5,961 nt of DNA from a virus (Duplodnaviria; Heunggongvirae; Uroviricota; Caudoviricetes). The translations under genes and the position numbers were made by a program. Of this stretch, positions 1 through 5,961 are shown one piece after another. How positions within the stretch are numbered: position 1 is the first letter of the stretch; every line of letters begins with the position of its first letter. The stretch spans positions 1 to 5,961 of the IMG/VR virus record IMGVR_UViG_2585427746_000001; one strand, 5' to 3'. The notes under the pieces are model-generated. The model worked only from the letters and a program-made list of their open reading frames with translations. It did not search any database and was not told the origin of the DNA.

Positions 1-7
1 AAGGGGA
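1..7 (+). promoter_or_regulatory. Shine-Dalgarno-like sequence (AAGGGGA) for the tail sheath gene
   Basis: Purine-rich AAGGGGA lies 7-8 nt upstream of ATG 15. Confidence 0.45.
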
Positions 8-14
8 CGTCCTG

Positions 15-1517
15 ATGATTAACTTTGATTATATCGGCGATAACAATCGCATTCCGCTGGTACAGATTGAAATCAATAATTCAATGGCCGTGACCGGCAC
101 TCCACCACAGCGTCAGGCGGTACTGTTGTTTGGTCAGGCTGCAATGAAAGACACTACCATTCAGGGGCGCGGTCAGCTTGATGTACCAGTACGTATTACC
201 CGAGCTTCACAAGCAAGAGAACTCTGGGGGCGAGGTTCCATGATTGCACTGATGGTAGAGGAATTTATCGCCATTAACCCTGACACAGAGTTATATGCCA
301 TTGCACAGGGGGCTGGAACAGGTCAGTCCAGGGCATGCGTGATGAATATCATTGGAACAGCATTGGCAGACGGGGTGTTAAGTGTTTACATCGGCGGTCG
401 CCGTTACCTCCTGCCCGTCAGTAAGGGGAAAAAAGGTAAAGAGCTTGTGGAAGAGCTGGCTAAGGTCATTAACGCTGACACTGATGCGCCATTCACTGCT
501 ATCGCAGCTGAAGTCAGTGGTGATAATGCTGAAGGACTTAAAGGCAGCATGGGGGTTAACGCCCGCTTTATCGGTGAATGCTCAGCTCATGATTTACGGG
601 TGAACTATTATGACGGTGAAACTACACCGGCCGGTCTTACGCTGGAGCTCGTCGCGCCAACACAGAAGGCAACAAACCCCGATATCACCCGTAGCGTCTC
701 AGGGATGGGGAATCGTCAGTACAACTACATCGTCATGCCCTATAAGGATGCGGCAAATCTCAAAATTCTGGCGGATGAACTGCTGAAACGCTGGGGACCG
801 GTAAAAATGTCGGACGGTATGGTCTGGATGGCGCATACCGGCACCTTCGGTACGGCAACCAGTTTTGGTGAATCCCGTAATGACTTCCTGTTTACCTGCA
901 CTTCTATTCCTAAAGCACCAGAGCCGGATTATGTCTGGGCTGCCTCCATTTGTGCGGTCTGTGCGCCCTCCCTGTCAACGGATCCGGCCCGACCATTACA
1001 GACACTGGCGCTGCCTGCCCGTATGGCACCTGAAGCACCGGATCGTCTGACGCGGGAAGAGCGAAACAGCCTGCTTTATACCGGCATGTCCACGGTGACC
1101 GTCGCGGCCGCGGATGTGGTGCAGATTGAACGTCAGGTGACGATGTACCGTCAGAATGCATACGGCGAAATCGATCCCAGCTATCTGGATGTGGAAACCA
1201 TCTACACCCTGTCATATCTGCGTTATTCCCTGCGCACCTTTATCACGCAGCGTTTTCCGCGCCATAAACTGGCTGATGACGGGACGCCCGTTCGTGCCGG
1301 TCAGAATATCGTGACACCGGAGATCATGAAACTTCAGTTAATTTCGCTGGGGGAAGAATGGGTGGATCTGGGACTGGTCGAAAATCTGGACACCTTTAAA
1401 AAGAATCTGCTCGTGGAGCGCAACACAAAAGACCGTAACCGTCTGGATGTGATGTGTACACCGGATCTGGTTAACCAGTTCCGCTTCATGGCCGCGCAGA
1501 TCCGTTTCATTTTGTGA
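15..1517 (+). CDS. Contractile phage tail sheath protein (Mu gpL-like)
   Basis: 500-aa ORF with ATG at 15 preceded by AAGGGGA (1-7). Size and position immediately upstream of a small tube-like gene, a frameshifted chaperone pair and a tape measure gene match the canonical myovirus tail order. Family assignment is from recalled similarity and context, not a search. Confidence 0.8.
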   Translation: MINFDYIGDNNRIPLVQIEINNSMAVTGTPPQRQAVLLFGQAAMKDTTIQGRGQLDVPVRITRASQARELWGRGSMIALMVEEFIAINPDTELYAIAQGAGTGQSRACVMNIIGTALADGVLSVYIGGRRYLLPVSKGKKGKELVEELAKVINADTDAPFTAIAAEVSGDNAEGLKGSMGVNARFIGECSAHDLRVNYYDGETTPAGLTLELVAPTQKATNPDITRSVSGMGNRQYNYIVMPYKDAANLKILADELLKRWGPVKMSDGMVWMAHTGTFGTATSFGESRNDFLFTCTSIPKAPEPDYVWAASICAVCAPSLSTDPARPLQTLALPARMAPEAPDRLTREERNSLLYTGMSTVTVAAADVVQIERQVTMYRQNAYGEIDPSYLDVETIYTLSYLRYSLRTFITQRFPRHKLADDGTPVRAGQNIVTPEIMKLQLISLGEEWVDLGLVENLDTFKKNLLVERNTKDRNRLDVMCTPDLVNQFRFMAAQIRFIL

Positions 1518-2512: not shown

Positions 2513-4570
2513 ATGGCAAAAAACCTGAAAGCCTCCCTGATTGTCGATTTACTCGGCAATATTTCTGCCAAATCCCGCCAGTGGTCACAGGAGCTGGGGG
2601 CGTTCTCCCGTTCCGGCAGGACAGGCCTGGGTGGTCTTGGAAATGCAGCACGCCGGGCCGGTCAGGAAACAGAACTTGTCGGCTCCCGTATGCAGCGAAC
2701 GCTTGCCGGTGTTCGTGGCAGCATCCGCACGGTAACGTCAGATTTTGACCGCCTGCAGGGCAGCATTACCGGCACCATCGGGCGGATAAGCAACCTTTAC
2801 GGGATGCTGGCGGGAGGGGCTGCGGTCTACGGGTTTAATAAAGCCTTTATCCGCCCGGCCGCAGAGATGGAGAACTATATTCTGCGTCTCAACGCCATTA
2901 ATCATGGCGATACGGCAAAAATGGAAGCAGTGAAAGCCTGGGCAGTACAGAACGCCAAAGACACCACCTGGGGGCTGGCGGGGGTTATGCAGGAATACGC
3001 CTCCAGTCGCGGGTTTGGCATGAGTGACAGGGAAGCCCGTCGCTTTATTACCATGCTTCAGGATCAGGGCGGCTATCACGGCTGGTCACTGTCAGATGCA
3101 CAGGGTGCGTCCCTGCAACTCAAACAGATGTTTGCCCGCCAGAGTATCCAGGCAGCGGACGCCAATATTCTGACCGGATACGGGATTAACGTTTACCAGT
3201 TACTGGCCGATAAGCTGGGCGTAAACCAGAAGATCATCCGTGAGAAAGGCGAAAAAGGAAAACTGGGGCCGGACAGCATTCGCCTGTTATTTCAGGTGAT
3301 GGCCGAACAGGCAAAAGGTGCCCAGAAAAACGCCATGAATTCCTGGACGGGAATGACGTCCATGATGGGCGACGTCTGGGACGGATTTGCCCGCGAGGTG
3401 ATGGCAAAGGGACCGTTTGACAGCCTGAAAAAGAGCCTGAAAGGCTTCCTGGATTATGCCGATGCGGCACAGAAAAGCGGCTTACAGGATAAGCTGGCCA
3501 CACAGACGGCCTCAGCTCTGAATCAGGGATTTGAGTATGCCAGAGACGCTGCGACCGGCTTTTACCGGGTCATTCAGAAAGTCAGGGAAACGCTTCAGGC
3601 ACTGCGCGACGCCGGTTATGGCGATGCGCTGGATCGCATTGGTCAGGGTGCGCAGACCGCCGCAAAGTACCTGATGTATATGTATCTCGCCTCCCGTGCG
3701 CTGAAGGTGCTCAGGTTTGCGGGGACGGGGGCATTACGTCTCGGCGCAACCCCCTTACGCTATGGCATGGCGATGACCTCCGTGCTGACGTCGCCCTTCC
3801 GCAAACCGCAGACCACTGTACCGGGAACGCAGCCCGGACGCGCTGGCCGGTTCCTGAATTTCCTTACCGGGGTAAATCCGGCTGCCGTTCAGCCCGTGCT
3901 GGTCACCAACTGGCCTGCGGGTGGCCTGGCCTCAGGTGGCGGGGATGTGGTGGTCAGCGGTGACGGCAAAACCGTGCGCGGCCGTAAAAAACGCGGCCCC
4001 GGACGTGGACGGGGTGTCACGACCGTCGTGACTGCCGGTGAGCAACTGGCGGAGAGTGCCGGTAAACAGGGCTTCTTCGGTCGTATGATGAGCCGTGCCG
4101 GTGGTCTGCTAACGGCGGCCGGAAACCGCATGGGGCTGGGGCGTTTTGCCGGGCTGTTCCGTGGTGCCGGTCGGCTGGGTGGTGGTGCCCTGTGGGCCGG
4201 TGCCATGGCGGCTCCTGTACTGCTGGACAGCAGCGCCAGTGCAGCCGATAAAGCCGGTGCCGTGGGTTCTCTTGCCGGAAGTATCGCCGGTGGCGCGCTG
4301 GGGGCGGCTGCTGGTCCGGTCGGGGTTGCCATTGGTTCCACGGTGGGCAGCTATCTCGGTGATTATCTGGGGGGCTGGCTGACGCAGGCCTGGCAGAAAC
4401 TGCGTGGCGGCAGTGACGAAAACGGCGGACAGGCCACCGCGAAAACCGCCGCACGGGTGGAGCTTGTGGCCCCTGAAGGCTGGCGGGCGCGCAGTATTGA
4501 TGTGGATGATACCGCACAGCATGGCCTGGATGTGAACGTCTGGAACGGAGGGAACTATGGCCTCTACTGA
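2513..4570 (+). CDS. Tail tape measure protein
   Basis: 685-aa ORF immediately after the chaperone pair. The N-terminal two-thirds is rich in Ala/Gln/Lys/Arg, as in helical tape measure proteins. The C-terminal third is Gly/Ala-rich with GxxxG-type glycine-zipper stretches (e.g. GSLAGSIAGGALGAAAGPVGVAIGSTVGSYLGDYLGG). Confidence 0.85.
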   Translation: MAKNLKASLIVDLLGNISAKSRQWSQELGAFSRSGRTGLGGLGNAARRAGQETELVGSRMQRTLAGVRGSIRTVTSDFDRLQGSITGTIGRISNLYGMLAGGAAVYGFNKAFIRPAAEMENYILRLNAINHGDTAKMEAVKAWAVQNAKDTTWGLAGVMQEYASSRGFGMSDREARRFITMLQDQGGYHGWSLSDAQGASLQLKQMFARQSIQAADANILTGYGINVYQLLADKLGVNQKIIREKGEKGKLGPDSIRLLFQVMAEQAKGAQKNAMNSWTGMTSMMGDVWDGFAREVMAKGPFDSLKKSLKGFLDYADAAQKSGLQDKLATQTASALNQGFEYARDAATGFYRVIQKVRETLQALRDAGYGDALDRIGQGAQTAAKYLMYMYLASRALKVLRFAGTGALRLGATPLRYGMAMTSVLTSPFRKPQTTVPGTQPGRAGRFLNFLTGVNPAAVQPVLVTNWPAGGLASGGGDVVVSGDGKTVRGRKKRGPGRGRGVTTVVTAGEQLAESAGKQGFFGRMMSRAGGLLTAAGNRMGLGRFAGLFRGAGRLGGGALWAGAMAAPVLLDSSASAADKAGAVGSLAGSIAGGALGAAAGPVGVAIGSTVGSYLGDYLGGWLTQAWQKLRGGSDENGGQATAKTAARVELVAPEGWRARSIDVDDTAQHGLDVNVWNGGNYGLY
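4547..4552 (+). promoter_or_regulatory. Shine-Dalgarno sequence (GGAGGG) for the N-like gene, inside the tape measure 3' end
   Basis: GGAGGG lies 4-5 nt upstream of ATG 4557, within the last codons of the tape measure gene. Confidence 0.5.
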
Positions 4571-4940
4571 CACGCCGGGGCGTGGCTCCTTTCGTGGCGT
4601 ACCGTTCCTGGTTTATCAGGAGCAGCGGGAACGGGGCGGACGTAACATTGTGCGCCGTGAATACCCACTGCGTGAAAGCGGCGGTGCGGATGATCTGGGG
4701 CCAAAACTCCCGGAGTTCACATTCACGGTTCTAGTGACCGGAGACGATCTTCAGACACAGCGAAGCCGCCTGCGTGATGCGCTGCGTGCACCCGGTGCCG
4801 GTGAACTGATGCACCCGGATTACGGCACGTTAAACGTGCTGATAAACAGCTTTGAAACAGCCGCCGCTGGCAGTATTTTGTCCGCAGAAACAATATCCCC
4901 GATCCGGTTTTTGTTCCGGGTGGCCGCCGCGTGGAGGTGA
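4557..4940 (+). CDS. DNA circularization protein (Mu N-like), N-terminal domain only; apparently truncated
   Basis: 127-aa ORF with ATG at 4557 preceded by GGAGGG (4547-4552), overlapping the tape measure 3' end by 14 nt. The N-terminal sequence (GSFRGVPF..., ELMHPDYG...) resembles the DNA_circ_N family as I recall it. It ends at TGA 4938-4940, far shorter than the roughly 400-500 aa I expect for full-length homologues. Confidence 0.55.
4933..4937 (+). promoter_or_regulatory. Shine-Dalgarno sequence (GGAGG) for the gpP-like gene, overlapping the stop of the N-like ORF
   Basis: GGAGG sits 6 nt upstream of GTG 4944. The TGA stop of the upstream ORF (4938-4940) directly abuts it, suggesting translational coupling. 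Confidence 0.55.
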
Positions 4941-4943
4941 TCA

Positions 4944-5961
4944 GTGAGCAGCAGGATTGAACTGTATATCGGCGGCAGTATTTTTTCCGGCTGGCTGACG
5001 GTCAGCGTCCGTCGCTCGCTGGAGCATCTGGCCGGGTCGTTTGAACTGGGGCTGATGCTGCCCGGTGAGCGCATCCCCTCAGCCCTGCGGACCGGTCAGT
5101 CCCTGACGCTCAGAATTAACGGGCAGACGGTCATCAGTGGCTGGCTGGATCAGGTCAGTCAGCGGATCAGTGCAACCCGTCATCAGATCAGCATCAGCGG
5201 TCGGGATAAAACCGGCGACCTGGTGGACTGTGCCGCCATCCATCCCGGCAGCCAGTGGCGCAACCGGACGCTGGCACAGATTGCCGCAGATTTATGTGCG
5301 CCCTTCGGGATAGCCGTGCGCTGGCAGGTTAACGACGACACGGCTGCACGCCCCTTCAGCTCTTTTACGCTGGAAAACTCAGAAACCGTGGCGGATGCGC
5401 TGACCCGTGCTGCCCGGCATCGCGGGGTGCTGGTGACCAGTAATGCTGACGGCGATCTGGTGTTCACCCAGGCAGGAAGCCAGCAGACGGACAGACTGGT
5501 GCTGGGAGATAACCTGCTTGATGCCGATTACAACACGGACTGGCGAGGACGATACAGCGAATACCGTGTCCGGGGACACGGGCGCGGTGGTGGCAAACGG
5601 GGAGACAGCGAATCCGCCGCCCGTCTGGCAGCACCTGTGGGCGTCATCAGTGATGAGCAGATCGGCCGCTACCGGCCGAAAATCATCCTCGCCGATCAAC
5701 AGACAGACACCACCGGTGCACGGCAGCGTGCCCTGCGTGAAATGCGCCGTGCGATTGCCCGTTCAGAACGGTTTTCTGCCACCGTGCGTGGCTGGTTCCG
5801 GGATGATGGCCGGTTATGGGATGTCAATCTGCTGACCGGTGTTTCAGCCCTGCGTTTCGGTATAGAACAGACTGAACTGCTGGTCTGTCAGGTGGAGTTT
5901 TTACTTGATGAACATAACGGGGAAGTCACCCGGCTGGTACTGGCACCGCGTGACGGCTTTA
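4944..5961 (+). CDS. Mu gpP-like / phage late control D family baseplate hub protein (3' end beyond window)
   Basis: Not in the supplied ORF track because it has no stop inside the window. Manual translation from GTG 4944 gives an uninterrupted frame of about 339 codons to 5961 ([22 protein letters not shown]...[37 protein letters not shown]...). GGAGG (4933-4937) lies 6 nt upstream of the GTG. Motifs and position after the N-like gene match the gpP/gpD hub family as recalled. Confidence 0.7.

Follow-up and report, generated by a model that had tools for sequence, protein, structure and literature searches.

A probable deletion remnant of the Mu N-like baseplate gene in an Escherichia coli prophage

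Introduction

In the baseplate of bacteriophage Mu, gp43 (N) acts as the hexameric tube initiator, and its helix-rich/LysM domain binds (clamps) the wedges (PMC11915804; PDB 9ki1). Mu N also enters the cell with the injected DNA, circularizes this DNA, and protects its ends (PMC3325207). A Mu-like prophage of E. coli carries, at the position of this gene, an open reading frame (ORF) of 127 codons. Two questions are raised by this locus: how the short ORF arose, and what its product could still do.

Results

The locus of the truncated ORF

The window, i.e. the whole stretch of DNA that was analysed, is the complete 5961-bp contig JOQQ01000092.1 of the draft genome GCA_000714175.1 (E. coli 5-172-05_S3_C1). 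Both ends of the contig fall within prophage genes. The following features were located; L001 and the metagenome contig L003 are relatives with an intact, 452-aa N.

2513–4570, + strand: intact tape-measure protein gene, 685 aa (PF20155 TMP_3, PHROG 973)
4557–4857, + strand: native 5′ part of N (gp43-like), codons 1–100, with most of the tube-like (DNA_circ_N) domain (identity to the N of L001 and L003, PF07157)
4856–4857, no strand: deletion junction with the 2-bp microhomology AA (overlap and offsets of BLAST segments)
4858–4940, + strand: out-of-frame tail of the stub, 27 codons and TGA (the native-frame reading is the intact N C-terminus)
4858–4960, + strand: remnant of the native N 3′ end, codons about 419–452, frame 2 (99.8% identity to L001 7514–7616)
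4933–4942, + strand: Shine–Dalgarno sequence of the hub gene, GGAGGTGATC (read from the sequence; identical in the intact L001)
4944–5961, + strand: gp44/P-like baseplate hub gene, codons 1–339 of 374, the rest lying beyond the contig end (PF21683, PF22255, PF21929)

The stub ORF starts with ATG at 4557 and ends at 4940 on the + strand; its 127-aa product has been deposited as KEL43344.1 (‘DNA circulation family protein’). The profile PF07157 (DNA_circ_N) matched residues 9–94 over profile positions 4–88 of 88 (E=9.9e-26; gathering score 21 bits), which agrees with the first-pass annotation of the sequence, where a DNA_circ_N-type ORF stopping after 127 codons had been described. The longer profile PHROG 184 (‘baseplate hub’, 411 positions) was matched at positions 3–102 only. 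That annotation had also found no other long + strand ORF for the missing C-terminal part and, indeed, no + strand ORF of at least 40 aa besides the hub gene starts within 4940–5137. A search for terminators in 4300–5300 found none.

The tape-measure gene precedes the stub and the gp44/P hub gene follows it, which is the position of N/gp43 in Mu, and the same gene order was seen in the relatives. The 3′ end of the tape-measure gene overlaps the start of N by 14 nt, the same as in the intact relatives, and the tape-measure protein is identical to that of L003, where the 452-aa N comes next. The hub gene starts with GTG at 4944 and shows GpP-like_1st, Gp44-like_2nd, and GpP_4th domain matches; its product is identical in 338 of 339 residues to WP_000098564.1 of L001, for which the same GTG is annotated. 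The sequence in front of this GTG is a perfect extended Shine–Dalgarno sequence, 6 nt upstream of the start codon and containing GGAGG at 4933–4937. The stub TGA (4938–4940) falls within it and, with both 4557 and 4944 being multiples of 3, the stub and the hub gene stand in one frame with only TGA-TCA between them; on both points the coordinates agree with the first-pass annotation, which had placed the stub stop inside the GGAGG ribosome-binding site of a hub gene in the same frame. In the intact relatives, N ends in a frame other than that of P, 17 nt inside P. The residual 3′ end of N in the window retains this stop (TGA, 4958–4960, 17 nt inside P), and is now untranslated from the N start.

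A 955-bp deletion in N

We compared the window with L001 and L003, the flanks of which are 99–100% identical to it (99.6% and 99.8% for L001). The left and right BLAST segments overlapped by two bases, the left alignment stopped at 4857, and the offsets of the two segments were 955 apart. Both relatives gave the same 955-bp (3×318+1) gap and the same AA junction, the missing segment being L001 about 6558–7512 and L003 about 8345–9299; in L001, N is annotated at 6258–7616 and P from 7600. All of the complete E. coli genomes covering the region (32/32) and both phage-collection records covering it (2/2) likewise matched in two pieces, spanning about 2053–2056 bp against 1101 bp. The intact E. 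coli Mu-like N genes (e.g. WP_198789099.1 in STEC2018-553; the prophage inserted in the Stx phages LC727881 and LC727895), with flanking DNA that is 99.6–100% identical, have the same start, tape-measure overlap, and N/P junction as the window, but contain the additional 955 bp and encode 452 aa.

At the protein level, stub residues 1–100 all match the intact N protein in both L001 and L003 (100/100 identical), whereas residues 101–127 come from a wrong-frame reading of the native N 3′ end; in the native frame, this DNA gives the intact C-terminus. A full-length orthologue of 452 aa stands at the same locus in L001, in L003, and in all 32 of the complete E. coli genomes covering the region, and the frame of the window is broken past the junction. 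Intact N aligned with Mu N from end to end (33% identity, E=1e-70) and with PDB 9ki1, ‘DNA circularization protein N’ (E=1e-73). Since the alignment with Mu N extends over the full length, the 955 bp absent from the window belong to the native N coding region.

The lesion is a single 955-bp deletion with 2-bp microhomology, a pattern typical of illegitimate recombination. The internal deletion of roughly 1 kb that had been suggested from the sequence, keeping the N/P junction, is exactly 955 bp when measured against near-identical relatives. In the comparisons recommended at that time, native N stops at residue 100, with the junction at 4856–4857, and the same locus in close relatives holds the 452-aa N. 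We consider it likely that ORF 4557–4940 is what a deletion has left, as a pseudogene, of the gp43-like gene N in a Mu-like prophage. The deletion took out codons 101–418 plus one base, so that the frame shifts and runs through 27 foreign codons until the TGA within the Shine–Dalgarno sequence of the hub gene. The frame match with P and the position of the stop are accidental products of this shift, since the shared frame results from a 3n+1 deletion and the feature is not conserved.

Among the homologues found by an exhaustive search of representatives, 121 of 148 had at least 350 aa, and the family median was 399 aa; a word-indexed search with the stub returned 10 proteins only, all of them short and partial, without a full-length N among them. 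The other origin proposed in the first-pass annotation, a lineage with a naturally short N, is not supported: the closest relatives all have a long N, and the stub ends in 27 codons of out-of-frame N.

The allele appears to be rare. With a 120-bp junction query, no record among 5426 complete E. coli genomes spanned the deletion junction (0/5426), and exact 42-mer and then 22-mer scans showed it to be absent from GTDB representatives, IMG/VR, and JGI metagenomes. The 127-aa protein was found on a single contig among 15 billion proteins. The event would seem to be recent and strain-specific. In the same genome searches, some E. coli genomes were seen to hold several Mu-like copies, at up to 8 places per record.

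Assembly artefact as a possible explanation of the deletion

An error of assembly or sequencing in the draft genome might have produced the deletion artificially, the true chromosome then having a full-length N. The whole contig is only 5961 bp long with both ends in prophage genes, which is a sign of assembly difficulty in this region; multiple Mu-like copies such as those in some E. coli genomes complicate short-read assembly; and with neither the junction nor the 127-aa protein in any other record, the allele is known from one short draft contig. Misjoins by graph-based assemblers arise where k-mers of tens of bases are shared. Since the two sides of the junction share 2 bp only, far below such k-mers, a misjoin is unlikely here; a single 6-bp direct repeat, AACAGC, the nearest one at the deletion ends, was not used by the junction. 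Furthermore, the flanks are clean, being 99–100% identical to the relatives and containing no ambiguous bases. Microhomology deletions are common real events in prophages, and a second, independent case occurs in related elements. Taken with these observations, an artefact is an improbable, although not negligible, explanation.

The domains lost from N

For P0026, a full-length homologue, the AlphaFold model (pLDDT 88.5) shows β-strands up to residue 116, helices at 129–416, and a small α/β C-terminus. The top Foldseek matches were the Mu baseplate gp43, Milano gp25, and the 7-7-1 baseplate protein. A single-sequence AlphaFold model of the stub itself (pLDDT 48) was too poor for use. The breakpoint corresponds to residue 97 of P0026, within the strand 87–100, so that the strand 107–116 and everything beyond are lost. 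According to this model, the stub does not contain the complete tube-like β-barrel domain with all the strands of the 24-stranded hexameric ring, and the helix-rich domain and LysM-like C-terminal module are missing, codons 101–418 being gone and codons 419–452 out of frame. Thus, as judged from the model and homology, the tube domain has lost its last β-strand, the helix-rich domain has gone entirely, and little of the LysM-like C-terminus was spared by the deletion. It follows that a complete Pfam domain match does not equal a complete structural domain.

The stub resembles Mu gp43 (N) in the N-terminal DNA_circ_N/tube-like domain and in its locus between the tape-measure (gp42) and hub (gp44/P) genes with overlapping gene junctions; it differs in that only residues 1–100 are kept, the rest being missing or out of frame. 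In the Mu record X06796, the N amber mutations 1995 and 7106 lie near codons 410 and 418 of 491, corresponding to residues about 368 and 376 of the present N, both within the deleted part. Since the domains are lost and the deletion spans the positions of these classical ambers, the N allele of the window is almost certainly null, as far as structure and Mu genetics can be carried over to a lineage the N of which shares only 33% identity with that of Mu. Given the complete DNA_circ_N match, the stub may still fold or assemble to some degree.

A more far-reaching proposal is that the stub is functional, either as a short tube initiator like the roughly 160-aa P2 gpU-type proteins, or as a dominant-negative subunit: expressed and translationally coupled, it could enter assemblies with the full-length N of other Mu-like phages, whether co-resident or superinfecting, and thereby poison their baseplates and tails. 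If true, the poison subunit would be an accidental dominant-negative defence. The proposal draws on the complete DNA_circ_N Pfam domain, on the match of PHROG 16855 (‘Gpu-like tail protein’, 158 positions; E=8.3e-19) to residues 9–103, and on the retained native start and tape-measure coupling with a new stop that probably leaves P expression undisturbed. The PHROG 16855 match, however, covers profile positions 10–104 rather than the whole profile, and in the model the tube-like barrel is short of its last strand. The P2 gpU-type proteins (about 158 aa) share the tube-like fold and small size with the stub, but they have a complete barrel with a C-terminal extension and a separate LysM partner, whereas the stub ends in frame-shift sequence: its 27 C-terminal residues are junk. 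The lineage has no separate LysM or BH1a-type gene between N and P as a replacement, Mu N amber mutants with >80% of the protein are already defective, and an allele on one contig only gives no hint of selection. A functional stub, whether as minimal initiator or as poison, is very unlikely.

Readthrough and insertion as alternatives

The common frame of the stub and P, with TGA-TCA as the sole separator, had suggested low-level readthrough of a TGA followed by C, and an N′-P fusion protein with its own function has to be considered. The idea rested on a misread base, as the base after the TGA (4941) is T, not C. A U at the fourth position reportedly favours efficient termination in E. coli. 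The common frame is a by-product of the 3n+1 deletion, and the arrangement is conserved nowhere in the complete E. coli genomes or the 15-billion-protein collection. In a fusion, the hub would also carry 129 foreign residues at its N-terminus, the part that forms its own tube-like ring (PMC11915804). We regard such a fusion as hardly credible.

Equally hard to credit is the reverse history, in which the short gene of the window would be ancestral and an insertion of 955 bp, for instance a mobile element or intron, would have entered N in the relatives: the two-piece alignment by itself fits insertion or deletion, but the protein sequence encoded by these 955 bp can be aligned throughout with Mu N and with the solved chain of Mu gp43, full length is the rule in the family (median 399 aa), 955 is not a multiple of 3 and the window frame is broken past the junction, and the G+C content of the segment (0.586) equals that of the window (0.581).

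Probable consequences for the prophage

Returning to the deletion remnant, the loss of N would leave the prophage without baseplates or tails, and without a protein to circularize and protect injected DNA, barring N in trans. The prophage is thus probably tail-defective unless another Mu-like element in the same cell supplies N. The earlier suggestion of a defective prophage was therefore reasonable. The accompanying idea of a tail module untied from DNA delivery is not supported, given the role of N as hexameric tube initiator of the baseplate in Mu (PMC11915804; PDB 9ki1), by which any contractile tail, tailocins included, would need N. The hub gene P keeps its own strong ribosome-binding site and its start, only 3 nt past the new stop; with these signals retained, the lesion is probably non-polar and the downstream baseplate genes probably still expressed.

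The stub is a case of ordinary prophage decay and not a new type of gene. It has little importance beyond annotation, being a tidy microhomology deletion that left the downstream translation signals intact by chance. The annotation of KEL43344.1 should mark it as a frame-shifted pseudogene fragment, and the prophage should be scored as probably tail-defective.

N-terminal fragments of N that arose by deletion or frameshift were also seen in other, clearly decayed Mu-like remnants, namely the 93-aa P0001 in L004–L007 and a split N in Salmonella salamae (L008). The deletion that formed P0001 likewise has a 2-bp overlap at its junction, but it is independent of the event in the window: N codon 88 is joined to gp48, and about 4.46 kb including P and the other baseplate genes are deleted, whereas only N is hit in the window. 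This second deletion begins 36 bp upstream of that in the window; a deletion hotspot was considered and rejected owing to ascertainment bias, the allele having been found by a stub-based search.

N stub and its junction with P

The window is the entire 5961-bp contig JOQQ01000092.1 of the draft assembly GCA_000714175.1 (Escherichia coli 5-172-05_S3_C1). ORF analysis together with Pfam and PHROG profile matches placed a Mu-like prophage tail module on its + strand:

15-1517, +, sheath
1526-1891, +, tube
1906-2385, +, gp41-type chaperone, 159 aa
2513-4570, +, tape-measure protein
4557-4940, +, 127-codon ORF (N stub)
GTG 4944 to contig end, +, gp44/P-type baseplate hub gene

The first-pass annotation had described the 127-codon ORF as an N stub with a DNA_circ_N-type domain, in one frame with the hub gene P and ending within the P ribosome-binding site, and all of this was confirmed. 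The product matches Pfam DNA_circ_N across the entire profile (E=9.9e-26); with PHROG 184 'baseplate hub' (411 positions), the match is confined to the opening quarter of the profile. The starts at 4557 and 4944 share a frame, with TGA-TCA as the sole spacer, and the stub terminates within the perfect extended Shine-Dalgarno sequence GGAGGTGATC (4933-4942), 6 nt upstream of the P GTG.

A 955-bp deletion relative to intact prophages

A 1101-bp query around the ORF gave full-length matches in 32 complete E. coli genomes and two phage-collection records, all of them two-piece and spanning about 2053-2056 bp. Base-level alignments were made to two relatives with intact N: L001 (STEC2018-553) and L003, a contig from a human-gut metagenome that encodes a tape-measure protein identical to the window's. 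The two agree that similarity on the left runs to window 4857, that on the right it begins at 4856, and that the offsets differ by 955 bp; identity to L001 is 99.6% left of the junction and 99.8% right of it. The only sequence common to both sides is 'AA', and AACAGC, a 6-bp direct repeat close by, was unused. It is practically certain that the contig differs from its intact relatives by this deletion, which bears out the earlier proposal of an internal loss of roughly 1 kb that kept the N/P junction; the suggested comparison with related prophages places the break in similarity at 4856-4857.

Intact relatives encode a 452-aa N, which starts at the same ATG as the stub, overlapping the tape-measure stop, and ends 17 nt into P in a frame different from that of P. 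Since 955 = 3x318+1, translation past codon 100 enters the P frame and runs through 27 foreign codons to the first in-frame TGA, two codons before the P start. When read in the native frame, the DNA after the junction still gives the normal N C-terminus (33 residues). Thus, the frame shared with P and the stop in the P ribosome-binding site are accidents; that site and the GTG are native and unaltered. Readthrough to an N'-P fusion had been considered on the ground that the TGA is followed by C; the next base is T, and with the common frame a frameshift accident the idea finds no support.

The junction also forms a sigma-70-like pair at 4852-4879 (TTGAAA-16 nt-TATTTT, 9/12 matches), to which each side of the deletion supplies one hexamer. 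No other such site occurs in 4300-5300 (shuffled sequence mean 0.2), and this one is probably due to chance.

Rarity and reality of the allele

The junction was found in none of 5426 complete E. coli genomes and in none of the GTDB representative genomes, IMG/VR or JGI metagenomes, and in a set of about 15 billion proteins a single contig carries the 127-aa product. The event is therefore private to GCA_000714175.1. Misassembly of this draft contig, which is short and has both ends within prophage genes, is unlikely because the junction shares a mere 2 bp, whereas assemblers would be expected to misjoin at long shared words. We regard it as highly probable that the deletion is real in strain 5-172-05_S3_C1.

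A lineage with a naturally short N was not supported: the relatives encode 452 aa, and when representative proteins are compared with the N-terminal 100 residues, 121 of the 148 best homologues reach at least 350 aa (median 399). The handful of short homologues resemble fragments from contig ends or frame-shifted products. An insertion in the relatives is made very unlikely by these lengths, by the end-to-end alignment of intact N with Mu N (E=1e-70) and with the solved chain of Mu gp43 (9ki1, E=1e-73), and by the G+C content of the missing segment, which is the same as that of the window.

Domains lost from N

In Mu, gp43 is a hexamer that initiates the tail tube: the tube-like domain makes up a 24-stranded barrel atop the hub, and the helix-rich domain, with a LysM module inside, clamps the wedge three-helix bundles (PMC11915804). 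Mu N is also injected along with the DNA, which it circularizes and whose ends it protects (PMC3325207). A full-length homologue, P0026, shares 84% identity with the stub across the N-terminal 94 residues; its AlphaFold model (pLDDT 88.5) shows strands to residue 116, helices at 129-416 and then a small alpha/beta C-terminus. In structure, this model most closely matches Mu gp43, Milano gp25 and the phage 7-7-1 baseplate protein. Since the breakpoint corresponds to model residue 97, within strand 87-100, the stub is predicted to lack the last barrel strand and everything beyond. The complete Pfam match does not equal a complete structural domain. Classical Mu N amber mutations lie near codons 410 and 418 of 491 (Mu record X06796), equivalent here to about residues 368 and 376, each of which the deletion removes; N function in Mu is already abolished by truncations far milder than that of the stub.

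Expected effect on the prophage

The deletion would make the N allele null, and unless another element supplied N in trans, the prophage would be unable to build baseplates and tails or the DNA-end-binding protein. P and the downstream genes are probably still expressed, because P starts 3 nt past the stop, the Shine-Dalgarno sequence is strong and no terminator-like site was present around the junction (4300-5300). The suggestion of a tailocin-like tail module freed from DNA delivery is not supported, because any contractile tail requires the tube initiator. The explanation as a whole, a real 955-bp deletion inactivating N with loss of function included, appears likely. It is ordinary, strain-specific prophage decay in an already well characterized gene family.

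N stubs in other Mu-like remnants

A 93-aa N stub (4001-4282 in L005) arose from a separate deletion of about 4.46 kb that joined N codon 88 to gp48, and is found on at least eight contigs of related Mu-like remnants, including L004, L005, L006 and L007. Its left breakpoint is equivalent to window nt 4821, 36 bp upstream of the window junction, a closeness that probably reflects ascertainment bias. In the Salmonella enterica subsp. salamae prophage L008 (UGYF01000001.1), the tape-measure gene, N and P are each split into at least two ORFs, which points to either multiple frameshift pseudogenes or assembly indel errors. Both kinds of stub are independent of the one in the window and lie in clearly decayed remnants.

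Other features of the contig

The prophage is mosaic in relation to L001: the sheath and part of the tape-measure gene (window 1-1200 and 3601-3900) are only 70-78% identical, and the window from 3901 onward is 99-100% identical. L003 shows 95-100% identity throughout, the least conserved stretch being 2101-2400 (95%). The gp41 chaperone has 159 aa in the window and 158 aa in L001 and L003, owing to a 3-bp indel. A +1/-2-frame ORF (called as 48 aa, 2363-2509) overlaps its 3' end; this frame is open from 2315, closes just upstream of the tape-measure start, and contains a G-run, CGGGGGC, at 2350-2356. The overlap at 2315-2509 resembles the programmed -2 frameshift of Mu-type tail assembly chaperones, reportedly described by Xu, Hendrix and Duda in 2004. 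The contig begins 14 nt before the sheath ATG and stops at hub gene codon 339 of 374; both ends lie inside prophage DNA and the relatives carry on past them, suggesting repeat-induced assembly breaks, perhaps because the genome holds another Mu-like element.
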